DNA of 18,325 nt from positions 1 through 18,325 of the IMG/VR virus record IMGVR_UViG_3300042922_000644. One strand, written 5' to 3'. The notes beneath the pieces are model-generated. The model did no database searches. It was not told the origin of the DNA and saw only the letters and a program-made list of their open reading frames with translations. Below are positions 2,059-14,529 of this stretch, one piece after another. How positions within the stretch are numbered: the first letter of the stretch is position 1; each line of letters begins with the position of its first letter. The translations under genes were made by a program, and so were the position numbers. Source of the DNA: a virus.

Positions 2059-3174
2059 ATGGATACTTTATATAGACAGTTTAAAGAAGCTTTAAAGAGA
2101 GAGGGAAAGACGGTCAAGGGGTATTATAATAATACCGACTATACTTGTCTTTTTAGAAAAAATTCAGATGATAATACCACTGATGGACACGTAACTATAT
2201 TCTATGAGATTGGATCAGGAATATATCAAGGTCAATTACTCTCCTTTGGAGAAAAGCACTTTGTAGTTTTAAATCAGGAGTCAGTTGAAAATTCGGTTTA
2301 TTATAAATCGGCTCTATTGGAATGTAATATCTTATTACCATTGGTGGAGAATATGAGATATAAATATATTCCATGCTATGCCTACGGTATGACTTCTCCA
2401 ACGGTTATATCAAATAATATAATGAGTATTGTAGATGGAAAATGTGAAATTATATCAGAGTATACAGATAAATTCACAACTTCAATAATTGATCTTTTGG
2501 TTAATATATTGGGTGGATATTATAAAATTCAGAACGTACATAATAAGTCAGGAATTGCTCATGTATATGTAGAAAGAGGTTTACAGCCATCATGGGTATA
2601 TGATTTTACTTTAAGTGCTGATGGTTCACAGTATCTTATTAATACCACTACAACATTAATTCCACTTGCAACAAAAAGTAGTATAGTAGACGATACCGCA
2701 ACGATTACATATACATCTAGTAATAATGCTATTGCTATAGTAAATTCGAGTGGTGTGGTGTCCTTTATTTCACCAGGTACTGTAACGATAACAGCAACAT
2801 GGGTAGAGCAGAATAAAACCGACACAGTAACATTAACAGTATTAGCGGAAATATTACCTTATACATTCAATCTAACTACTCAATATTTACCTGAAGATAC
2901 TTGTAATTTGGGAACTGCAAAAATATATAAAGTTTCATTAGTTGATAAAGTAACATCACTTCCAGTTGATTTTACACCATCATGGACATTTAATTGGAAT
3001 GGAATGGCTTCTAATAATTTTACGGTTACTTATCCGACTACATATCAATGCTCAATAAAAACCCTTGATGATAACTATGATTTATTAGGTTTAACCTATG
3101 TTGTCACTTGTAGTTGTACTTATAATGATAAATTATATTCTGATAGTTTAACGGTAACTATTGAATTATATTAA
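2059..3174 (+). CDS. Virion structural protein with a bacterial Ig-like (Big_2) domain. Possible neck/head-closure or tail protein.
   Basis: ATITYTSSNNAIAIVNSSGVVSFISPGTVTITATWVEQNKTDTVTLTV (about nt 2596-2844) is a classic Big_2 signature. The N-terminal segments IYQGQLLSFGEKHFVVLNQ and GGYYKIQNV loosely resemble head-closure beta-barrel proteins, with low confidence. Confidence 0.65.
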   Translation: MDTLYRQFKEALKREGKTVKGYYNNTDYTCLFRKNSDDNTTDGHVTIFYEIGSGIYQGQLLSFGEKHFVVLNQESVENSVYYKSALLECNILLPLVENMRYKYIPCYAYGMTSPTVISNNIMSIVDGKCEIISEYTDKFTTSIIDLLVNILGGYYKIQNVHNKSGIAHVYVERGLQPSWVYDFTLSADGSQYLINTTTTLIPLATKSSIVDDTATITYTSSNNAIAIVNSSGVVSFISPGTVTITATWVEQNKTDTVTLTVLAEILPYTFNLTTQYLPEDTCNLGTAKIYKVSLVDKVTSLPVDFTPSWTFNWNGMASNNFTVTYPTTYQCSIKTLDDNYDLLGLTYVVTCSCTYNDKLYSDSLTVTIELY

Positions 3175-3467: not shown

Positions 3468-3496
3468 TTGACAAGTGATATCACAAGTGGTATTAT
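3468..3496 (+). promoter_or_regulatory. Rightward near-consensus sigma-A promoter with a GTGATATCAC operator in its spacer
   Basis: TTGACA (3468-3473), a 17-nt spacer, then TATTAT (3491-3496), preceded by TGG as an extended -10. The palindrome GTGATATCAC at 3475-3484 sits inside the spacer. A GTGATAT half-site lies at 3508-3514. Confidence 0.7.
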
Positions 3497-3911: not shown

Positions 3912-3950
3912 CTGACTAGCTATATTGAAGATTTAGAGATAATTGATAAA

Positions 3951-3976
3951 ATATTTTAGTGATATCACTAAAATAT
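3951..3976. promoter_or_regulatory. 26-bp perfect palindrome (operator candidate) centred on GTGATATCAC
   Basis: ATATTTTAGTGAT|ATCACTAAAATAT, with the two halves verified as exact reverse complements. It abuts the -35 of the RNAP gene promoter. Confidence 0.7.
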
Positions 3977-3979
3977 ATA

Positions 3980-4009
3980 TTGACATCACTTAGTAACACG
4001 TGGTATAAT
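3980..4009 (+). promoter_or_regulatory. Near-consensus sigma-A promoter of the RNAP gene
   Basis: TTGACA (3980-3985), an 18-nt spacer, then TATAAT (4004-4009), preceded by TGG as an extended -10. Confidence 0.7.
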
Positions 4010-4046
4010 ATAAGTGTAAGGGGGTAGTCTGCCCTTTTACACTTAT
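4010..4046 (+). promoter_or_regulatory. 15-bp stem-loop at the very 5' end of the RNAP transcript (or a DNA inverted-repeat operator)
   Basis: ataagtgtaaggggg (4010-4024) pairs with cccttttacacttat (4032-4046), including two G-U pairs. The loop is 7 nt. It starts 1 nt after the -10, and no U-tract follows. Confidence 0.55.
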
Positions 4047-4082
4047 AGTTATCAGCAAACACAACATAAAAGGAGAGGTTTA

Positions 4083-6851
4083 ATGGAAAAAGGCGTTAAG
4101 ATAAAGAATTATTATGCAGGAGAGATTTACGGATATAAACTAGGAACTAGAGAATATTTATCATCAAATGAAGCTGTATTAAATGATAGCTTATTAAATA
4201 GATGGTTGAGAAAAAATGGTTTACAAGTTGAGAAGAACAGCACAAAAGATTTGATTTGTATTGACTTCTCTTTTGGTCACAATGATTTTAAAAGTGAAAA
4301 TGCAAAACTTAATCGAATGATTAAAAAAGTTGATAAAAAGATTGCTGAAATAGACACTTCTAACAGTGATGAAGAGAAAGCTATGAAAAAGCTTTTACTT
4401 AGAGATAAAAAGCTACGCTATAACAGAGCAAAAGCTAAAATTAAGAGTTTAAACGATTCAAACCCTGAAATATTCAAACAAGTTAAAAAGGATGATATGA
4501 GAGTTGAATTCTATACTAAGCAATCATCGTCATTAGATAATAAAGTTGAAATAGATAATATTGATTATGAAATGCTTTATAGAAGTACATCAAAAGCAAA
4601 AACAGGAAAAGCAACTTTCATTAACAGTGACCTATACAAAGATACATATAAATGGATGACAATGGGGTTAGGAGATTTAGAGGACAATAAGAAAATAGTT
4701 GAAATGTCGGCTTATATGGGTTTGGTTGCATCTAGTATTATTGATACAATCAAAATAAAACCGTCTGAAATACTATTTTTAGAGGATAGAGAAAGCGAAT
4801 GCAAAGCAGAAGCTAATATCGTAAAAGTGAAAAATGGAATATGTGTAGTAGAACCAGAAGAAACAACTATATCTAATTGGCTATGGGATGGAATGTCATT
4901 GATCGACAGTGATTTTTTGGAGGAACACATAAAACAAAATGGAGTTGAATTGAATTCTATGGTTTTGCTTCGTAACCACTTTTTCAAAAGTTGTGCATTC
5001 AAAACACGAATAAAATTATTTATGCAAGAACGATTTGGAGAAGATTACGAAACTAAAACTATAAAGGATATGTTTGGAACTAAAAAAGCCAAAGATATTA
5101 AGCTGATAGTTACGGATAAGTCTCTAAAGTGGTTAAAATTCACTAATTTAATGGGAGATAACCCCTATAAATATTGGTGTGATAGATTAAAAGAAGATGG
5201 TTATATATTCGGTATTGTAAAGACAGATCATCCGAGTAAGCTAGGATCAGTACAAAAAATGTCTGCACAAATGATAAATAGTCTTGAATTAACCAGAGGA
5301 AAAGAAAAAGAGGAAATAAAAGAAATCGCAAAGCTAGGGACTGAAAGAGTAGTTAATATAAAGGCAGACAATGACGAATTTATCAAGTTTTTAAGAGAAA
5401 AAGCTACACTAATCAATCATTATAATATGTTAGCAGACCTTTATGAGTATAATAAAGAATTTGCTAATAATAAATGGTGGAAAACAGAAAAGAGAAAAGT
5501 AATTCATGATTATGTTGAAACTTTAAGGTGTGGGGAAATTCCAGTATCAGGTGATAATTTAACCGTAGTTGGAAATCCATACGCTTTATTACTTCATGCC
5601 ATAGGTGAGAATTGGGAAGATGATAATACACTGGTTCATGAGGATGGAGCAATTCAATGCTATACTAAGAGATTTGATAGTGATAAATATATTACTGGAT
5701 TTAGATCACCACATAACAGCCCTCATAATATTTTATATCTGCATAACATGAAATCTGATATCCTAGACCATTACTTTGATTTTTCAAAGAATATTATAGT
5801 GGTAAATATGATTAAGACAACCGCACAATCGAAAGCTAATTCAATGGACATGGATTCTGACTTTATTTTTGCCACAGATGAACCAACGATTACGAATATA
5901 GGTAAAGTATGCTATTTAAAATATAAAACCATCGTAAACTCTATCAAAGAAATGTCGAAAGAATATATCAATGAAAAGGAGTCTTTCGCAAAGATGGATA
6001 GCGAATTAGCAAAGGCACAGGACACAATTGGAAAATCAAGCAATTTGGCTCAACGTGCTTTAAGTTGGATATATGATGAATATTCAAGAACTGGTAAGGT
6101 TAATAAGGGTTTAGAGAACAACATAATCATCTTAGCAACACTTGCACAGGTTGCAATAGACCAATGTAAAAAAGGATTTGAGATTGATCCAGAAAAAGAA
6201 GTTAAACGAATACAAGAGTCATATATCATGAAAGGAAAAAAATCTCCTAGATTTATGCACTGGACAAATAAAATAAAGAAAATTAACACAAAAGAGTATA
6301 AGTGCCCTATGGATTTATTAGAAAAAGAATTAGACGATATTTCTAATAATGACAGTCCTACAGGATATGAAAATCAATTATATTTTAATCTAATGGAGGG
6401 AAAAGCAAATAGCAGACATAAGAACATAATTAGAGACTTGATAGAGGATTATGACAATAAAATCAAGGAGCATTATGCGGAAACTTATAAGAGTAGACCT
6501 AAAAATGATGATAAAGAGAATTATGAAAAAGAATTATTAAATGCAGCGAGTAGACTAAGTGAAAAAATAAATAGGATTAAACTTGATGATAAAACCATGA
6601 ATAGATTGATTGCAGAGGTTTTCGTTGAAAAGAATAGCATATTCGCTAAATACAGACGGAAACTATTAAATGCTTTATACAACAAGCACGATGATAAAAG
6701 TAAGTTCCTAAGTAATTTTAACAATGCGGAAATAGTGTTGGAAAAAATTAAAATCCAAAATGAAGAGGAAGAAAAAGCTAAGAAAAAATCATCAAAATTG
6801 CAGAATGAAAAAGTCAAAAAGCATAAAAAAGCTATCAAAATAAAGGACTAG
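4083..6851 (+). CDS. Candidate single-subunit two-barrel DNA-dependent RNA polymerase (YonO / cellular RdRP-like), 922 aa
   Basis: ANSMDMDSDFIF carries a DxDxD motif (D589, D591, D593; nt 5847-5861), preceded by ITGFRSPHNSPHNILYLHN (nt 5697-5732). This parallels the RNPxLHPGD ... DLDGD arrangement of RdRP/QDE-1-type enzymes. YRSTSKAKTGKATFINS (nt 4578-4619) resembles the basic ARxGQxFS motif of the second barrel. The C-terminal tail is Lys/Glu-rich. The RBS AAAAGGAGAGG is strong. Confidence 0.6.
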   Translation: MEKGVKIKNYYAGEIYGYKLGTREYLSSNEAVLNDSLLNRWLRKNGLQVEKNSTKDLICIDFSFGHNDFKSENAKLNRMIKKVDKKIAEIDTSNSDEEKAMKKLLLRDKKLRYNRAKAKIKSLNDSNPEIFKQVKKDDMRVEFYTKQSSSLDNKVEIDNIDYEMLYRSTSKAKTGKATFINSDLYKDTYKWMTMGLGDLEDNKKIVEMSAYMGLVASSIIDTIKIKPSEILFLEDRESECKAEANIVKVKNGICVVEPEETTISNWLWDGMSLIDSDFLEEHIKQNGVELNSMVLLRNHFFKSCAFKTRIKLFMQERFGEDYETKTIKDMFGTKKAKDIKLIVTDKSLKWLKFTNLMGDNPYKYWCDRLKEDGYIFGIVKTDHPSKLGSVQKMSAQMINSLELTRGKEKEEIKEIAKLGTERVVNIKADNDEFIKFLREKATLINHYNMLADLYEYNKEFANNKWWKTEKRKVIHDYVETLRCGEIPVSGDNLTVVGNPYALLLHAIGENWEDDNTLVHEDGAIQCYTKRFDSDKYITGFRSPHNSPHNILYLHNMKSDILDHYFDFSKNIIVVNMIKTTAQSKANSMDMDSDFIFATDEPTITNIGKVCYLKYKTIVNSIKEMSKEYINEKESFAKMDSELAKAQDTIGKSSNLAQRALSWIYDEYSRTGKVNKGLENNIIILATLAQVAIDQCKKGFEIDPEKEVKRIQESYIMKGKKSPRFMHWTNKIKKINTKEYKCPMDLLEKELDDISNNDSPTGYENQLYFNLMEGKANSRHKNIIRDLIEDYDNKIKEHYAETYKSRPKNDDKENYEKELLNAASRLSEKINRIKLDDKTMNRLIAEVFVEKNSIFAKYRRKLLNALYNKHDDKSKFLSNFNNAEIVLEKIKIQNEEEEKAKKKSSKLQNEKVKKHKKAIKIKD

Positions 6852-6911
6852 CAGTAATTACAATTCGTCCGTTATATGATAACATAAGCAAGATATAAAT
6901 ATCCTAATTGG

Positions 6912-6940
6912 AGTATACACTATATTTTCTTATATGTCAA
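6912..6940 (-). promoter_or_regulatory. Candidate leftward promoter pointing antisense into the 3' end of the RNAP gene
   Basis: On the minus strand, TTGACA (6935-6940), a 17-nt spacer, then TATACT (6912-6917). No credible downstream ORF. Confidence 0.35.
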
Positions 6941-6989
6941 TACCTTTTTTAAAATATTTTTAGACTACTACAGCATTCATATATAGCCT

Positions 6990-7038
6990 ACCACCCATGA
7001 GTGGAGTTCATTTGTGGGTGGTCACTTTCATTTTTTTA
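6990..7038 (+). terminator. Weak candidate terminator downstream of the RNAP gene
   Basis: An 8-bp stem pairs accaccca (6990-6997) with tgggtggt (7015-7022) around a 17-nt loop. The T7 run at 7031-7037 is separated from the stem by 8 nt. Confidence 0.35.
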
Positions 7039-7085
7039 CACAATTTTATTGCATTACAAACAAACCATAGAATGGCTTAATCAGT

Positions 7086-7114
7086 ATTTTACACGAATGC
7101 TTACATATTGTCAA
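7086..7114 (-). promoter_or_regulatory. Candidate leftward promoter inside the long non-coding region
   Basis: On the minus strand, TTGACA (7109-7114), a 17-nt spacer, then TAAAAT (7086-7091). No ORF with an RBS lies downstream, so a non-coding or antisense transcript is possible. Confidence 0.35.
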
Positions 7115-7251
7115 CAATTATTTTCAATAATATGCCACTACTGCAAGTGGTTTATTATAAATCCTCTCTTTCTACATTATTTAATTCAATTGTTTCAGCT
7201 AAATTTCTGTAATTTAACTTAACAGATGTTTTTCCATGGACTCTAAGCAAA

Positions 7252-7324
7252 GGGGAGAAATTGTCCTACTCCCCAACCTCCAGATAATTACCGCCTATCT
7301 CCTTTTGGATAAAGGCGGTTTTTA
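7252..7324 (+). terminator. GC-rich hairpin followed by an intrinsic terminator, just upstream of the capsid operon
   Basis: Hairpin 1 pairs ggggag (7252-7257) with ctcccc (7269-7274). Hairpin 2 pairs accgcct (7290-7296) with aggcggt (7313-7319), has an inner tcc/gga stem, and is followed by a T-run at 7320-7323. Confidence 0.55.
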
Positions 7325-7411
7325 TATATCAACTATTAACAATGTATTAGGGGCAATCCTATGAACTCATAGAGGGCAAACGGTAAAGCAACTAGAAAGG
7401 TAAGGTAATAT

Positions 7412-7906
7412 ATGGATTTAAAAGAATTAGGATTAACCGCAGACCAAATAGAAGCGGTAAACAAAGCTATTCAGAGTGAAACTGATAAGGTAAGAACTGA
7501 CTACAGTTTGAAACTTAAAACAGCTAATGACGAATTAAGCAAGTTCAAACCCAATGAGAAATCAGATGCAGAAAAAGCACTTGAACAGAAACAAAGGGAA
7601 CTTGAACAAAAAGAATTAGAGATTGCAAATAAGGAAAAATCCTATAAGTTGAAAGACAAATTAACTGAAAAGGGTTTATCTCCTGAATTAGCAAAATATC
7701 TAAATGCAGGTGATGATCTGGATAAGTTCGTTGATGAATTAAGCGGTACATTTAACAATTTACTGGTTAATAACGGATTTAAACCCTCTGACCATAAAAA
7801 GAGTGAGGGTATCACCAAAGAGCAATTTGCTAAGATGAATTATATGGAACGTGCAAAATTGCAAGATGAAAAACCAGAATTATATAAGATTTTATCTCAA
7901 AAATAA
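7412..7906 (+). CDS. Capsid scaffolding protein (DUF4355-like)
   Basis: A 164-aa, helical, Lys/Glu-rich protein. It begins MDLKELGLTADQIEAVNKAIQSETDKVRTDY and lies immediately upstream of the major capsid gene. Confidence 0.75.
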   Translation: MDLKELGLTADQIEAVNKAIQSETDKVRTDYSLKLKTANDELSKFKPNEKSDAEKALEQKQRELEQKELEIANKEKSYKLKDKLTEKGLSPELAKYLNAGDDLDKFVDELSGTFNNLLVNNGFKPSDHKKSEGITKEQFAKMNYMERAKLQDEKPELYKILSQK

Positions 7907-7923
7907 CATAAGGAGGAATTATC

Positions 7924-8757
7924 ATGGCTTTAATTAAACCAGACGTATACGCAGGCTTAGTGCGTGAAAAATTTGATAGTAAGATTAAGATTGCTACAAT
8001 GGCAACAGATTTAGGATACCTTACAAATACTACAGTTGGTGAGACAGTAACATTCCCTAAGTGGAAATTACTTTCCGCAGCCGAGGACGTTGTAAAGGGT
8101 ACTCCTATTGGCTCTGAATCTCTGGATCAGGAGTCTAGTACAGCAACGATTAAGATTGTTGCTCCAAAGGGTGTAGAAATTTATGACATTGATAACATTA
8201 CCGCACTTGGTAACGCAATCAATGAAGCAGCTACACAGCAAGGACAGAATATTGCTCGTAAGATCGATTTAGACCTTATTACAGAAGCAAAGACAACACC
8301 ATTAAAGAAAGCTACATCGGGTGCTACAGCTATTACATTAACTGAAATGGATGGAGCATTAGGCTTATTTGGTGATGAACAGGATGCGGAAAGCTTTTCA
8401 GGAATTGTAATTCATTCCTCTATTCTTCCGTCATTCTTAGGAATGGATAACTTTGTATCCACTGACAAGACATTCATGACAATGGGTAACGGTATTGTAA
8501 GAAATGGATTAGTTGGATATTACAGAGGTATTCCAGTATACATGGCTAATCATGGTACATATGACAGCACTACAAGCGAGTGCCTGACATTTATTATTAA
8601 GAGGAATTCCCTTGGATTTATGACTAAGAGAGACATTAGTACAGAAATCAAGAGAGAGCCAGAATATTTAAGAAGTACAGTATATTCAAATATGATTTAT
8701 GCTTGTAAGCTTCTTGCTGATGATGGTATCGTCTTAATGAGAAAGACTATTGCATAG
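7924..8757 (+). CDS. Major capsid protein (HK97-fold type)
   Basis: A 277-aa protein with a strong AAGGAGG RBS. It follows the scaffold gene. The N-terminus ALIKPDVYAGLVREKFDSKIKIATMATDL and the overall composition are typical of small HK97-like capsid proteins paired with DUF4355 scaffolds. A stable hairpin lies downstream. Confidence 0.75.
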   Translation: MALIKPDVYAGLVREKFDSKIKIATMATDLGYLTNTTVGETVTFPKWKLLSAAEDVVKGTPIGSESLDQESSTATIKIVAPKGVEIYDIDNITALGNAINEAATQQGQNIARKIDLDLITEAKTTPLKKATSGATAITLTEMDGALGLFGDEQDAESFSGIVIHSSILPSFLGMDNFVSTDKTFMTMGNGIVRNGLVGYYRGIPVYMANHGTYDSTTSECLTFIIKRNSLGFMTKRDISTEIKREPEYLRSTVYSNMIYACKLLADDGIVLMRKTIA

Positions 8758-8853: not shown

Positions 8854-9081
8854 ATGTTAAACGGTAAGAAACTACAGTTTTTAAGGATATATCATGGTTA
8901 CTCACAGAAATATATAGCTGATGCAATCGGTGTATCTGAAAGATGGATAGGAAAGATTGAGAATGAGGGTTCTACACCGTCAGAGGAAGTATACGAAAAT
9001 TATTTACTTGCTTTATATGGCAAGCTTAAACCAAAGAAAGTGAAAGCGGAAAAGACCGCCACGAAAAAGGATACCGAATAA
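8854..9081 (+). CDS. XRE-family helix-turn-helix protein (75 aa)
   Basis: LQFLRIYHGYSQKYIADAIGVSERWIGKIENEGSTPS fits the HTH_3 pattern (SQ..lA...GvS...is..E.G). The C-terminal tail is basic. Confidence 0.8.
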   Translation: MLNGKKLQFLRIYHGYSQKYIADAIGVSERWIGKIENEGSTPSEEVYENYLLALYGKLKPKKVKAEKTATKKDTE

Positions 9082-9133: not shown

Positions 9134-9337
9134 ATGACGGGTAAGGAATTTAGAAGATGGAGAAGAAACGAGGACATTACACAGGATAAAGTAGCCGATA
9201 TGTGCGGTATTGACAAAAGTACCGTATCAAGATGGGAAAATGAATTAATAGTTATTAGTGATAAACACTACAACAATATAATGAATTTCATTGATTACAT
9301 GACAAATAAAAACAATATGAAAGGTAGGGTATTTTAA
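9134..9337 (+). CDS. XRE-family helix-turn-helix protein (67 aa)
   Basis: FRRWRRNEDITQDKVADMCGIDKSTVSRWENE fits the HTH_3 pattern. The RBS is GAAAGGAG. Confidence 0.75.
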   Translation: MTGKEFRRWRRNEDITQDKVADMCGIDKSTVSRWENELIVISDKHYNNIMNFIDYMTNKNNMKGRVF

Positions 9338-9543: not shown

Positions 9544-9561
9544 TGAAAGGGGTGAATGCTT

Positions 9562-11307
9562 ATGAGTAGTCTAATGGTAGTACAAGAACAAAGGCAAATA
9601 ATTTTTGCGGTGGACTCAGCACATAGTAAAGTAGTTTGTAATATGAAAACCAAAGAAAAAAAGATATCTCGTTATCTGAATGATGATGTTGATAAAATCC
9701 ATTTTATCGGTAAGGATATTGCCTTTGTGTCAGGTGCTAACTATGTGATTGATCCAGTTATAGAAAAGCTTAATGATTTTCTTGATAGTAAAAAACGAAT
9801 TTATACAGAAGAATTGAAAAAGTATCTATTAGAAAATTACCCATATTCAAAGTGTCCGATTAAAGAGTATGGACTTAGTGATATTGGAATTACTATTCTT
9901 CGAGTGATGAATAATGAGGCTATAATGATTAAAATGGATCAATGTAATGATTTTGAGCCAGTAATAAGCAAAGCAAAACAAGGAGAAATAAAGCTTTCAG
10001 TAGATGGATTTGACAATCAACGAATTTATGAGAACGGAAGTAAATTCTTAAATAGATTATCTAATTTTGGATGGAGATCCCCAGAAGCTTTAATAACGAT
10101 ATATCAGAATAATTATAGTGAGGGTGTAGGCGGTCTAATTAAGGTTTATAAATTAGATTGGAGTGGTTGCAATCTTATTAAGTCACAAAAACTAGAAGAG
10201 AAAAACCTAAACTATATAAGTATTGATGAAGATGGGAATGAAATCGAAAGTAATGATAAGTTAGAATTTAAGTCATGCTTACAAGCTTGCACTGGTACTT
10301 TCACAGGAACGGTACAAGCAGGGCAAGTAATAGGCGGTACAGTTGAGGGAACAACTATTAACGGTTCAACAATCAACGGTACTGTAATAAATGGATCAAC
10401 AATATATGGCGGTGAAATAATTGGTGGTACAATTACAAGTGAAGCAGGTGGAATTGATTATGGAACAGTTACTATTGATGATGGTGCTGTCATTTCGTCA
10501 TTTGATAATGGTGGGGATCATATTGAACTCACTATGGGTGGTGTATCCTTTGATGTTGGAATTCATTTAGCTGATGGTAGAACAGCATATTCAAATTTAC
10601 AACATTCAGGAGTAAGAACTGGATTAACTGGTGGTAGTTATGCGGAATATTTAAGAAGTGGAATTAATATTGGTACTTCAAGTTCATACAATTTTACAGC
10701 AGATAATAGTGGTAATGTGTCTTGTAAGACATTGAGTATTAATGGTGCTTCTCCTTTAACTACAAGCAATTATTCTTCGTATGCAGCTCCAATATCACAT
10801 ATGCAATCATCCTATACTATTACACCAACACTGACCGCCGCACAAAATATTTCACTTTATGGTGAACCCAACGCAGCCAGTACATGGTGGGTAAATGCCA
10901 ATTTCGAGAAGCTTTCTGCTTCTGATTTTAGGTTGAAAAAGAATATATTTGATATCAATATTCCAAACGATGTATACTTTGACCTAAAGCCTAAACAATA
11001 TGAATTTAAGTGCGATGAAAACCGTAATGGTGTATGCTTCGGACTTGTAGCACAACAGACACAAAATGTATTCAGTAAATACGGTTTAAATCCCACAGAT
11101 TATAATTTATTTAGGTTCTCTGATCCAAAGTCTTATACTGATGAGGGGTTATATGTAGGTAAGGATAAAATTAATTCAATTAACTACGAGAATATGACAT
11201 CATGGACAGTTAAAATAGTACAGGACTTGAATAAGAAAATAAGTGATTTAGAAAGCCGAATTAATGTATTAGAAGATAAATTGTCAGAAAATTCAACAAA
11301 TTTATAG
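9562..11307 (+). CDS. Tail fibre/spike with a C-terminal Peptidase_S74 intramolecular chaperone domain and an unusual N-terminal domain
   Basis: The C-terminus has SDFRLKKNI (Ser codon at 10921), then CFGLVAQQ, then the coiled coil ISDLESRINVLEDKL, which is the S74 auto-cleaving chaperone signature. The middle has GGTVEGTTINGSTINGTVINGSTIYGGEIIGGTI beta-helix-like repeats. The ATG at 9562 is preferred over 9556 because of its spacing from the GAAAGGGG RBS. Confidence 0.85.
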   Translation: MSSLMVVQEQRQIIFAVDSAHSKVVCNMKTKEKKISRYLNDDVDKIHFIGKDIAFVSGANYVIDPVIEKLNDFLDSKKRIYTEELKKYLLENYPYSKCPIKEYGLSDIGITILRVMNNEAIMIKMDQCNDFEPVISKAKQGEIKLSVDGFDNQRIYENGSKFLNRLSNFGWRSPEALITIYQNNYSEGVGGLIKVYKLDWSGCNLIKSQKLEEKNLNYISIDEDGNEIESNDKLEFKSCLQACTGTFTGTVQAGQVIGGTVEGTTINGSTINGTVINGSTIYGGEIIGGTITSEAGGIDYGTVTIDDGAVISSFDNGGDHIELTMGGVSFDVGIHLADGRTAYSNLQHSGVRTGLTGGSYAEYLRSGINIGTSSSYNFTADNSGNVSCKTLSINGASPLTTSNYSSYAAPISHMQSSYTITPTLTAAQNISLYGEPNAASTWWVNANFEKLSASDFRLKKNIFDINIPNDVYFDLKPKQYEFKCDENRNGVCFGLVAQQTQNVFSKYGLNPTDYNLFRFSDPKSYTDEGLYVGKDKINSINYENMTSWTVKIVQDLNKKISDLESRINVLEDKLSENSTNL

Positions 11308-11743: not shown

Positions 11744-13609
11744 ATGAAAGTAAAACTGATGCTAGACAAGCATGAGTTTCAGGCTAAACCTACGGGATTT
11801 GAAACTGGAGGTATTCAGAAACGAATTGCACAAACAGAAATTGAGATTGAAGAACTTGCAAACGGTCTATGTCATGGCTATACATGCAAACCGGCACTTC
11901 TTATTGGTAGTAAGAGTGCCGATTGGATAGAACAACAAGTATTCATGTTAGATTTTGACCACGACACGACGGTTGGGGAACAGTTGAGTGTCGCAGATAA
12001 TTTAGGTATTAAACCAGTATTCTTATATACATCTTTTAGCCATTCCGAAAAAGAACATCACTTTCGTATGGTTTTCATCAATGATTATATTATAACAGAT
12101 GTAGAGCAAAGAAACAAGCTACAATCTACACTAATTCACCTTTTCGATAAATCGGACAAGGTTACTTTTGATTGCACAAGAATATTCTATGGTGGGTGTG
12201 GTCACACTCCTATTTCCCCAAACTACGAAGCAAGAATAAACGCTGATGAAATCATCAATAAGTATTACAAGCCTGAATATGATATCTCTAAGCCTGTCAA
12301 AAAGGCTAAAATCAAGGAAAAATCCATTGATAAAGAGAATATTAAGGTTTCTATTAATGATGATTATTTAGCGAATGTACAAGCAATTAAAGAGTTAAAT
12401 GTACGCAAAATGAGGGAGATAGTAGGCACTTCGTTGAAAAGGGTACCTAATAAAGAAGATAACCTCTTATCAGGTACCCCTAACAGTGGCGGTCGTGTTG
12501 TGCTGCACTCGTTGAATGAATTGTATGATTATATAAATAATATTGATTTGTGTGCTTTTTTGGGCATAGATGAGGGATATTTCATTAATTGTATTCTACC
12601 TAATCATGATGATGATAACCCATCGGCTCATATATTTACTACTAAGGATGGAACACAAGTATATAAATGCTTCGGTTGTGGTAAGGCTCTAACTATTATT
12701 GCATTAGTGGAGATACTAGCAAAGACAACTAGAAGAAAATCAATCGAATTTATCAAGAGAGTTTATAATATTGAATTGGTAGAGTCTGATTGGATGAGAG
12801 AACAAAGAGAAATAATGAGGGAGAATGTATACTATCTGGATACAGAAGAATTCAAAATAGAATTCCCAAACTTATCGAAGCTAATAAGGACTAGGAAAAT
12901 TCATTTAAAAGCCTTGATTACATATTTTTCACAGCTTATTAGTGAGGAACTACAAGTAGACAATAAACCTCTCTTTTTCAGTGGGTATCCTAAATTATTA
13001 GATGTATGTGGTATCAATCAAAATAAAAGAGTTAAGTTGTCACAATCACTTACTTTATTCCATCTTTTGAATTTGATTGAGAAGATTGAGCCTGAAAGAC
13101 TTCCAAAAGACCAGTTGAATAAGGCAAAACATATTAGTGCAAAGTATGGATTTAAGAAGCTTACAAACTTCTACCAGTTCAATGAATATGGTTATCTTCT
13201 CCTTGAAGAAAGTGAAGAGATTGCAAAGGAACTTATTGCAAAGAATATCTCAATTAAAGGTATTAGTAGGGAATATATAATGCGTACATTTGGAACTGAA
13301 TTAGCAGACAAGGTATTTCCACAATACAAATATGAAAATCATCGTGGTAATGGAGTTACAAAGAAATCTGATGAAATGACATTGAAAATCAGTGAAGCAT
13401 TACTGGAAGTGATTAATAATCAAGGCTACATAAGGGAATGTGATTTAAAGGTTAATGATAAGATTGAAACTCAATGGAAAAGGAGTATTCAAGAGATATT
13501 AGATGCTTATGGACTTGTGAGAGTTAGAGCAACTAAATCGAACAAAGAGAAATATAACATTCCTGACGAAATTCCATATCAATCCTTTGTGATTGTAAAA
13601 GCTGAATAA
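11744..13609 (+). CDS. Replication protein: AEP-family primase-polymerase N-terminal domain fused to a DnaG-type CHC2 zinc finger (621 aa)
   Basis: AEP motifs are FMLDFDHD (DxD), HHFRMVF (His motif) and FDCTRIFYGG. The zinc finger is CILPNHDDDNPSAHIF...YKCFGCGKALTIIALVE (about nt 12590-12700). No Walker A helicase motif was seen. Confidence 0.7.
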   Translation: MKVKLMLDKHEFQAKPTGFETGGIQKRIAQTEIEIEELANGLCHGYTCKPALLIGSKSADWIEQQVFMLDFDHDTTVGEQLSVADNLGIKPVFLYTSFSHSEKEHHFRMVFINDYIITDVEQRNKLQSTLIHLFDKSDKVTFDCTRIFYGGCGHTPISPNYEARINADEIINKYYKPEYDISKPVKKAKIKEKSIDKENIKVSINDDYLANVQAIKELNVRKMREIVGTSLKRVPNKEDNLLSGTPNSGGRVVLHSLNELYDYINNIDLCAFLGIDEGYFINCILPNHDDDNPSAHIFTTKDGTQVYKCFGCGKALTIIALVEILAKTTRRKSIEFIKRVYNIELVESDWMREQREIMRENVYYLDTEEFKIEFPNLSKLIRTRKIHLKALITYFSQLISEELQVDNKPLFFSGYPKLLDVCGINQNKRVKLSQSLTLFHLLNLIEKIEPERLPKDQLNKAKHISAKYGFKKLTNFYQFNEYGYLLLEESEEIAKELIAKNISIKGISREYIMRTFGTELADKVFPQYKYENHRGNGVTKKSDEMTLKISEALLEVINNQGYIRECDLKVNDKIETQWKRSIQEILDAYGLVRVRATKSNKEKYNIPDEIPYQSFVIVKAE

Positions 13610-14121: not shown

Positions 14122-14529
14122 ATGGCACAAGCAAGAACAGAGTCCATATTGCAGAAATTAAAGGCTATAGTGCCTGAATACATAGCAAGGTTTATTATCT
14201 GGTATTATTCCGAAGAAGATAAACGATGTGATTTTAAAGACTTCATGCCATATGAACCAATGGTAAAGGGAAAATCACTTGATGATTGCTTAGAATGGCT
14301 TACTAGGGAAGATGCTCAAGAAGCTATGCAAACATATCATAAACACATGAAGAAATTCAGATTAATGCAAATTTATGATGCTATGTTTGAAAAAGCAGTA
14401 CAAGGAGATACTAACGCTGCCAAATGGGTTGAAGCATTTTCAAATAGTTCTTTCTTTGATGAAAGTACAGACGAAATAGACGATTTTATGAAAAAAGTGA
14501 ATATCCCTGCATTGAAAGGGGGTAAGTAA
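14122..14529 (+). CDS. Probable terminase small subunit (135 aa)
   Basis: Its position immediately upstream of terL, overlapping it (TAATG), supports the call. The segment MQIYDAMFEKAVQGDTNAAKWVEAF resembles the conserved helix of small-terminase / phBC6A51-type HTH proteins. Confidence 0.5.
   Translation: MAQARTESILQKLKAIVPEYIARFIIWYYSEEDKRCDFKDFMPYEPMVKGKSLDDCLEWLTREDAQEAMQTYHKHMKKFRLMQIYDAMFEKAVQGDTNAAKWVEAFSNSSFFDESTDEIDDFMKKVNIPALKGGK

Follow-up and report, generated by a model that had tools for sequence, protein, structure and literature searches.

A YonO-type two-barrel RNA polymerase gene and its exchangeable surroundings in an 18-kb phage-like replicon

The window analysed here, i.e., the whole stretch of 18,325 nucleotides (nt) of the IMG/VR virus record IMGVR_UViG_3300042922_000644, raises the question of what a very small viral replicon encodes in its largest gene, and of what the product is used for. 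Its longest open reading frame (ORF; 4083-6851, plus strand, ATG start) codes for a protein of 922 amino acids (aa). The two ends of the window overlap exactly over 127 nt, which makes the replicon a circle of 18,198 bp (or a terminally redundant molecule), of which this ORF occupies 15.2%; a first-pass annotation made from the sequence alone had likewise put the largest gene at about 15% of the replicon. The same annotation had proposed a single-chain RNA polymerase (RNAP) related to YonO of SPbeta. The 922-aa protein is indeed a single-chain two-barrel RNAP of the YonO/RdRP (RNA-dependent RNA polymerase) family, and its active site is intact. YonO-type enzymes have been known since 2003-2010 and were characterised in 2017, such that the protein adds another member to a known family, in an unusual context. 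Concerning its role, the best overall explanation, which we consider probable, is that of a YonO-type enzyme made as an early gene from a host-type promoter, which would transcribe the late operon of the phage.

Family, fold and active site of the 922-aa protein

As judged from sequence comparisons, the protein is not an orphan: PHROG 8308 ('unknown function') covers its residues 15-909 (E 4.6e-85), and YonO (SPbeta record, L003:11360-13876 on the minus strand) falls into the same group with 1220 bits and is its founding member. The alignment of a 28-sequence family profile to YonO by hhalign has a probability of 98.2% (E 5.7e-14, 444 columns) and pairs the following segments of the window's protein and of YonO: STSKAK/SAGQIR, WDG/TDG, LLRNHFFK/MVRLPWVK, FRSPH/LRSPH, and DMDSD/DNDGD. 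The homology to YonO extends over the full length, with both barrels in one polypeptide. A homolog annotated as 'RNA-dependent RNA polymerase' is found in the Enterocloster phage PMBT24 (BLASTP 4e-21), its FRSP...DFDGD aligning to the FRSP/DMDSD block of the window, and an exhaustive search yielded 996 homologous clusters at 50% identity (E<=1e-3).

The 922-aa protein itself has no Pfam match at E<=0.1, the RdRP family PF05183 included. Two of its homologs, P0227 (34.5 bits) and P0256 (29.4 bits), exceed the gathering threshold of that family (23.8 bits), P0256 spanning profile positions 55-571 of 582; at the sequence level, the link of the window's protein to the Pfam RdRP family is thus transitive only, via homologs. 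Searches against PDB sequences with the 922-aa protein, two family profiles, and one Pfam-positive homolog returned nothing relevant. Taken together, the family comparisons place the protein where the first-pass annotation had expected it. In comparison with the 84% identical homolog in the genome L008, identity amounts to 0.89, 0.94, and 0.75 at codon positions 1, 2, and 3, respectively, which indicates purifying selection on the polymerase gene.

An AlphaFold model built from 36 homologs (pLDDT 87.4, pTM 0.80) was compared with known structures by Foldseek. In the PDB, all of ranks 1-14 belong to RDR2 or QDE-1 (E 4.6e-13 to 1.5e-9, probability 1.00, query-normalised TM 0.35-0.50, 620-1040 columns), followed by gp66, the virion RNAP of the crAss-like phage phi14:2 (E 1e-3, probability 0.99). 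Pol II (Rpb1) and the archaeal large subunits match non-significantly (Pol II with E above 0.2). The top match in BFVD is a metagenomic podovirus 'RNA dependent RNA polymerase' (E 2.5e-46, TM 0.74), and a stand-alone double-psi beta-barrel protein fits one segment of the model (BFVD rank 9, probability 0.99). Beta-rich blocks of the model lie at residues 221-344 and 486-598, and the whole-chain match to QDE-1/RDR2 points to two double-psi beta-barrels (DPBB) in the predicted structure; no unrelated fold competes among the matches from PDB and BFVD. The structural relatives named beforehand, QDE-1 and gp66, are thus recovered, and neither the lack of a double-psi barrel nor a confident match to an unrelated family, which would have spoken against the proposal, was encountered. 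The size of 922 aa and the global match to RdRPs instead of to beta/beta-prime suggest that the protein may do without the SBHM/flap insert and other domains of multisubunit RNAPs, as described for YonO-like RNAPs (PMC7824862, PMC5467207).

The segments of the protein to which the following comparison refers are these:

Residues 166-182 (nt 4578-4628, plus strand): basic motif YRSTSKAKTGKATFINS, with R167, K173, G175, and F179
Residues 262-306 (nt 4866-5000, plus strand): core of barrel 1 (beta-subunit-like), with WD269G and LLR297NHFFK302
Residues 534-596 (nt 5682-5870, plus strand): core of barrel 2 (beta-prime-like), with FR541SP543H and D589-M-D591-S-D593
Residues 539-555 (plus strand): GFRSPHNSPHNILYLHN
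Residues 589-593 (nt 5847-5861, plus strand): catalytic triad DMDSD, within ANSMDMDSDFIF at 585-596
Residues 692-696 (nt 6156-6170, plus strand): IDQCK, with D693 and K696 invariant in the family (34/34)

Ruprich-Robert and Thuriaux defined eight residues that are invariant in two-barrel RNAPs, i.e., D709, R738, K743, R962, P964, D1007, D1009, and D1011 of QDE-1 (PMC2919709). The window's protein appears to possess counterparts of all of them (D269, R297, K302, R541, P543, D589, D591, and D593), as mapped by the YonO alignment and by spacing. Among 34 diverse homologs, comprising YonO, PMBT24, three small-phage types, and distant metagenomic members, R541, P543, D591, and D593 are present throughout (34/34), D589 is present in 33, and D269, R297, and K302 are each kept in 33-34, YonO included. 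The distance from D to R in barrel 1 is 28 residues in the window vs 29 in QDE-1, that from R to K is 5 in both, and that from R to the first D in barrel 2 is 48 vs 45. A DxDxD motif alone is, as a piece of sequence, weak evidence, about 0.35 occurrences being expected by chance in a protein of such composition; it is the conservation within the family that gives it significance. Serine at the fourth position of the triad is the family norm, and glycine, as in YonO, is the minority state.

The first-pass annotation had located DMDSD, GFRSPHNSPHNILYLHN, and YRSTSKAKTGKATFINS correctly, and its statement that their order resembles that of eukaryotic RdRPs and YonO holds, the triad, R541/P543, and K173 being conserved and aligned to their YonO counterparts. 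Its list of motifs did not contain the canonical barrel-1 residues D269, R297, and K302. Concerning the basic motif, K173 is K or R in all 33 sequences compared, and G175 and F179 are kept in 31 and 28 of the 33, respectively. In the AlphaFold model, K173 lies on a short helix (169-173) before barrel 1. QDE-1 possesses a DPBB1 auxiliary helix (D1AH; residues 664-678, R671/S677), which binds the RNA product strand (PMC9508822); the motif at 166-182, situated at the same relative place, is most likely its counterpart.

As a side observation, group I introns (Rfam RF00028, 84 bits, E about 1e-21 each) interrupt polymerase homologs of large IMG/VR phages; they are situated at 2252-2501 and 2812-3061 in L011, also in L012 and L013, and at about 2742-3631 in L010, where the intron contains an HNH/NUMOD-type homing endonuclease ORF. 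The insertion sites are directly before the DFDSD triad (residue 588/589 of the window's protein) and in the motif QV|IID..KR (about residue 690). Homing of introns into the triad and ID..K motifs is a sign of functionally constrained sequence.

The structural matches raise the alternative that the two-barrel enzyme acts mainly on RNA templates and makes antisense or double-stranded RNA for regulation or in conflicts with the host or with mobile elements. The 14 best-matching structures are cellular RdRPs, the homologs mentioned above pass the Pfam threshold for RdRPs, the gene is missing from relatives of the phage, in keeping with an accessory role, and an RNA-based role for YonO-like proteins was considered by Ruprich-Robert and Thuriaux before the biochemistry became available (PMC2919709). 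However, among bacterial and phage members YonO alone has been characterised; it is a DNA-dependent, processive RNAP, which transcribes the late operon of SPbeta, its triad mutants being dead (PMC5467207), and QDE-1, too, has DNA-dependent activity (PMC9508822). Furthermore, the Pfam and PHROG annotation of the 18-kb genome shows no RNA-silencing partners, and position and regulation of the gene (see below) fit a switch from early to late expression. An enzyme devoted mainly to RNA templates is thus unlikely; since YonO is DNA-dependent, we infer a DNA template for the window's enzyme as well.

Among known systems, YonO is similar in its full-length membership in PHROG 8308, in the order of motifs with aligned triad and R-x-P, in size (839 aa vs 922 aa), and in being a phage gene located upstream of late structural genes, from whose operon a long non-coding gap separates it. 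It differs in sequence (about 18% identity only, and DNDGD vs DMDSD in the triad), in having an HU-like neighbour that the window's gene lacks, and in genome size (134 kb vs 18 kb). QDE-1 and RDR2 share the overall fold, with a TM of 0.45-0.50 across about 900 columns, and the eight active-site residues at nearly equal spacing, whereas sequence identity is 11-14%, the Pfam match that characterises them is missing in the 922-aa protein, and they belong to RNA silencing rather than to a DNA phage, the template in the window presumably being DNA. Gp66 (PDB 6vr4) is likewise a phage-encoded single-chain two-barrel polymerase with a recognisable structural match, but it comprises 2166 aa, is packaged in the virion, transcribes early genes, and reaches a TM of only 0.21/0.10, whereas the window's gene stands behind a host promoter. 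Finally, a putative RdRP-like polymerase with a DxDGD-type loop is a signature gene of certain tailed phages, namely an actinophage supercluster and Lactococcus and Faecalibacterium phages such as FP_oengus (bioRxiv 10.1101/842583). Matches to Streptomyces and Microbacterium phages were also obtained with the window's capsid protein; the genomes that carry this signature gene, however, are of roughly 37-43 kb, and the terminal helix-turn-helix (HTH) domains reported there are not seen in the window's protein. A tblastn search with the 922-aa protein did not retrieve the polymerases of these phages.

Promoter, terminators and exchange of the polymerase gene

Upstream of the polymerase gene, the following elements were found; two further copies of the palindrome are included:

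3474-3485: copy of AGTGATATCACT with one mismatch, inside the spacer of the second-best sigma-70-like promoter
3958-3969: palindromic operator-like site AGTGATATCACT (12 nt), 10 nt upstream of the -35 element, found by pattern search
3979-3990: AGTGATATCACT site with two mismatches, overlapping the -35 element of the polymerase promoter
3980-4009, plus strand: sigma-70 promoter (TTGACA, 18-nt spacer with TG extension, TATAAT)
4009-4047, plus strand: 18-bp inverted repeat forming a hairpin in the 5' untranslated region, spanning the expected transcription start
4070-4078, plus strand: ribosome-binding site AAGGAGAGG, read from the sequence and conserved in L081
4083-6851, plus strand: RNA polymerase coding sequence (922 aa)
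17736-17747: second exact copy of AGTGATATCACT, after the portal gene

The promoter at 3980-4009 is the sole 12/12 match to the sigma-70 consensus in the window, while the total of promoter-like sites in the window is not above that in shuffled sequences; the host-type promoter claimed for this gene by the first-pass annotation is therefore even a perfect one. The hairpin behind it (dG -23.1 kcal/mol, z -4.6) is more stable than in any of 200 shuffles and may act as an operator or as an RNA element. In L081, an 18,274-bp sibling of the window, the promoter is kept despite a different downstream ORF, the operator-like site 3958-3969 is conserved, and the hairpin is preserved by a compensatory change (AAGTGT/ACACTT to AGGTGT/ACACCT). 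The copies of AGTGATATCACT suggest, by their placement in the sequence, an operator set for a regulator, candidates for which are the products of two Cro/CI-type HTH genes (8854-9081 and 9134-9337). A minus-strand ORF at 17743-17991 was considered as a repressor and rejected, as it has no Pfam or PHROG support.

This arrangement bears on the idea of a virion-borne enzyme that is injected for early transcription, like N4 vRNAP or the crAss-like gp66. Its structural relationship to gp66 and the location of the gene, with a Big_2-domain structural-type gene on one side and the head genes on the other, would agree with it. The gene is preceded, however, by the perfect host-type promoter with putative operators, and further early genes have sigma-70-like promoters of their own (at 3468 and 11336), such that an injected polymerase is not needed. 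Virion-packaged RNAPs are very large, have their genes among those of the virion, and serve early genes without host promoters, whereas the present protein has 922 aa and a consensus host promoter; gp66 matches far more weakly than non-virion relatives, and the capsid implied by a capsid protein of 277 aa and an 18-kb genome would be small and leave little room. Packaging is accordingly very improbable.

Downstream of the gene, the following features precede and open the late (scaffold-capsid) operon, which begins at 7412 and has no strong sigma-70 promoter before it:

6852-7045: non-coding block 3' of the polymerase gene
6990-7022, plus strand: terminator-like hairpin with a stem of 14-15 bp and a U-rich stretch (dG -20.8 kcal/mol, z -3.6)
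7290-7325, plus strand: canonical intrinsic terminator, consisting of a hairpin (7290-7319) and UUUUUAUAU (dG -18.6 kcal/mol, z -5.2)
7320-7411, plus strand: leader of the late operon, consisting of TTTTTATATATCAACTATTAAC, GGGGCA..GAACT, a small variable hairpin, GGG, and GCAACTAGAAAGG (ribosome-binding site)
4047-7318, plus strand: exchangeable cassette, i.e., the polymerase ORF and 467 nt of downstream non-coding DNA

The first 194 non-coding nt (6852-7045) are 95% identical to L008, vs 86% for the coding sequence and 75% for its third positions, and they are absent from L081, which carries another polymerase type. The block is thus a candidate, on the basis of this sequence conservation, for the site of a cognate promoter or regulatory element. 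At the position of the second terminator, L081 and L008 likewise have a hairpin, of another sequence, ahead of an identical T-run. The architecture of the late leader is conserved in L008, L014, L016, L019, L026, L028, L041, L047, L081, L082, and L083: it opens with the T-run/TATATA, the hairpin varies in sequence while its pairing is kept, and GCAACTAGAAAGG-ATG closes it, which suggests a conserved RNA or DNA element. As this leader is present with any polymerase type or with none, it is not polymerase-specific.

The exchange becomes visible in the comparison with L081. Both genomes are collinear at 71-91% nt identity (primase 95%, o72 97%, terminase 77%, and capsid 71% identical) except for the blocks 306-1939 and 4047-7318, and the polymerase of L081, located in the same slot, is only 29% identical to that of the window. 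The left breakpoint of the second block is near the start codon, the operator, -35, -10, and the 5' hairpin being conserved; the right one is at the terminator hairpin, whose structure is kept while its sequence differs, and the shared leader TTTTTATATATCAACT... follows. In this alignment, the polymerase ORF has been exchanged together with its downstream non-coding DNA, as is expected if enzyme and cognate site must match. In L008, which has the same polymerase type, the upstream region is unrelated to that of the window, and the promoter is absent. The slot, defined as the interval between the Big_2 gene and the scaffold gene, is occupied as follows (several lineages could not be assigned, as the 10-kb flank was too short):

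Window and L008 (84% identical): window-type polymerase
L081 and L016: second polymerase type
L041 group (22 loci): third polymerase type, with the motif MDFDSD
L082 and L083: no polymerase

A large ORF after the portal gene of L083 was considered as a divergent polymerase and rejected, since it is a host PknB-type kinase.

The nearest relatives of the polymerase (44-48% identical) are found in large SPbeta-like phages of Clostridia and Bacilli, next to homologs of HU, YonJ, YonG, and YonD, and a neighbour-joining tree nests the window's polymerase among theirs. Portal, terminase, capsid, scaffold, and several small genes place the window in a different phage family, whose IMG/VR contigs cluster at 16-19 kb. 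Contigs of 17-21 kb with 40% identical homologs were rejected as small phages; they are fragments of large SPbeta-like phages with YonJ/YonG/YonD and HU neighbours.

Some further observations concern the same regions. Minus-strand sigma-70-like promoters (11/12) at 6940-6912 and 7114-7086 point leftwards downstream of the polymerase gene, the former inside the stretch whose sequence is conserved in L008; an antisense RNA directed at the 3' end of the polymerase mRNA could arise from them. An extended region free of ORFs (0.56-2.3 kb) and without Rfam match is situated upstream of the scaffold gene in every member of the phage family, with or without polymerase (window 6852-7411, L081 2735-3914, L082 4063-6404, L014 about 400-1643); the comparable gap in SPbeta measures 1.7 kb and holds the start site of YonO as well as a non-coding RNA that lacks annotation. 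Polymerase homologs annotated as hypothetical (29% identity, E about 1e-45) are also encoded by non-mobilizable Clostridium plasmids in PLSDB (C. perfringens NZ_CP120752.1 and NZ_CP075911.1, 36-37 kb; C. botulinum NZ_CP013295.1, 197 kb), which are probably phage-plasmids.

Proposed role in late transcription

The gene is located directly upstream of the scaffold/capsid operon and behind the best sigma-70 promoter of the replicon, a layout that fits an early gene with a role in late transcription, as does the precedent of YonO. Most likely, we infer, the product is an early-made DNA-dependent RNAP that transcribes the late operon. Host RNA polymerase would transcribe the gene from the promoter at 3980-4009, which would be gated by the palindromic operator; the same palindrome is present at the second early promoter. 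The terminators at 6990-7022 and 7290-7325 would halt host transcription ahead of the scaffold-capsid operon. According to the predicted fold, the active site of the phage enzyme lies between the two double-psi beta-barrels of its single polypeptide, barrel 2 giving R541/P543 and the Mg-binding triad D589/D591/D593, and barrel 1 giving D269, R297, and K302, while the short helix with K173 would probably hold the RNA product. The enzyme would start at a cognate site within the co-inherited segment 6852-7318, read through the terminators, and continue into the late structural genes. YonO lacks a flap and is less responsive to pausing (PMC5467207).

A tentative extension, which we regard as possible though doubtful, is that enzyme and cognate promoter travel as a plug-in cassette of ~3.3 kb for late transcription, which could be swapped or lost between a fixed switch and a fixed leader; the terminators would then insulate the late genes from host RNAP, and the flap-less phage enzyme would read through them.

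Several points weigh against late transcription by this enzyme or against parts of it. The best structural matches are named RNA-dependent, and the comparison set contained no YonO structure; equally, the mapping of the barrel-1 residues onto QDE-1 relies on invariance and spacing instead of structural superposition. The conservation of 6852-7045 is seen in two sequences only, in which the 3' part of the coding sequence is also 90-92% identical, and could reflect a recombination patch. Concerning a cognate promoter, the best 16-mers shared among the intergenic regions of the window do not exceed the maxima of shuffled sequences, no such motif being found there, and 14-mers of 6852-7411 recur downstream of related polymerase genes no more often than in shuffles. 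Finally, the slot is devoid of a polymerase in L082 and L083 while the late leader is kept, such that late expression in this phage family does not universally depend on the enzyme.

Gene content of the replicon and meaning of the finding

The remaining genes of the replicon were assigned from Pfam and PHROG matches, the primase-polymerase also from Foldseek:

310-1161: ParA
1166-1447: weak ParG-like protein
2059-3174: Big_2-domain protein (structural-type gene)
7412-7906: scaffold
7924-8757: HK97-type capsid protein (277 aa)
8854-9081 and 9134-9337: two Cro/CI-type HTH proteins
9556-11307: tail fibre
11744-13609: fusion of an AEP primase-polymerase with a DnaG-type zinc domain
14529-16100: large terminase
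16389-17711: SPP1-type portal

Among the proteins of the replicon, no integrase and no DNA polymerase were recognised by Pfam and PHROG, and the 18-kb element therefore looks like a small phage-plasmid. The product of 11744-13609 (621 aa; PHROG 25531, 'unknown function') combines an AEP part, which carries an invariant LDFDH motif, with a CHC2 zinc domain of the DnaG type and, C-terminally, a helical part; its assignment rests on a Foldseek match to the PrimPol of cyanophage S-2L (E 2.5e-5). Homologs occur in many 16-18-kb contigs and also in bacterial chromosomes.

The lack of a recognised DNA polymerase gene, together with the long repeat-bearing ORF-free regions at 6852-7411 and 17712-18160, would suit a polymerase that serves plasmid-like replication, making a primer or an R-loop at an origin for the host DNA polymerase; replication primed by transcription is known from ColE1 and T7. 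The replicon has, however, a dedicated primase-polymerase of its own, such that the RNA polymerase is not needed for priming. In L081, furthermore, the primase is 95% conserved while the RNA polymerase has been swapped for the 29% identical version, and L082 and L083 have the same primase without any such polymerase. A replicative function is therefore quite unlikely, and like the RNA-templated and virion-packaged alternatives it is less likely than a role in late transcription.

The ParA/ParG block (306-1939) is missing from L081, and none of 47 related IMG/VR loci has a homolog of it; plasmid-type maintenance, as judged from this distribution of the sequence, looks like a recent acquisition. 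Direct repeats of the ACAAGAAGTACAA type flank the partition cassette at 331-382 and 1221-1299 and are probably centromere sites. In the 450-nt non-coding region following the portal gene (17712-18160), TGCATGATTATACAGTA occurs twice as a direct repeat, and several motifs resemble ATGCATAA (at about 17985-18075); the region might serve as an origin or a pac site. An inverted repeat of 25 nt (88% complementary) with intergenic arms at 1976-2000 and 3929-3953 flanks the Big_2 and o148 genes; by a rough estimate, its significance is borderline. The two HTH genes are oddly sited, as they follow the capsid gene and precede that of the tail fibre. Scans of the window, L014, L081, and L082 for Rfam families and tRNAs gave zero matches.

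What is new is the context, i.e., a genome of 18 kb that spends 15% of its length on a polymerase, and a cleanly exchangeable cassette of polymerase and flanking DNA. If the tentative plug-in cassette is true, the promoter of a YonO-type enzyme would be confined to a segment of 467 nt, and the window would, to our knowledge, represent the smallest tailed-phage genome with its own RNA polymerase, the phages that we know to encode one having genomes of about 38 kb or more. With this assignment, PHROG 8308 receives a function, as do about 1000 metagenomic protein clusters; the majority of these are annotated as hypothetical, as is the GenBank record of the 922-aa protein.

YonO-type enzymes are the simplest known relatives of the cellular RNA polymerases, and the study of YonO left open how promoters are recognised and how terminators are handled (PMC5467207). 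The 18.2-kb circle provides a compact natural system for these questions: a single gene is placed behind a host promoter with a putative operator, two terminators divide it from one late operon, and the swapped version in L081 as well as the polymerase-less variants L082 and L083 are available for comparison.

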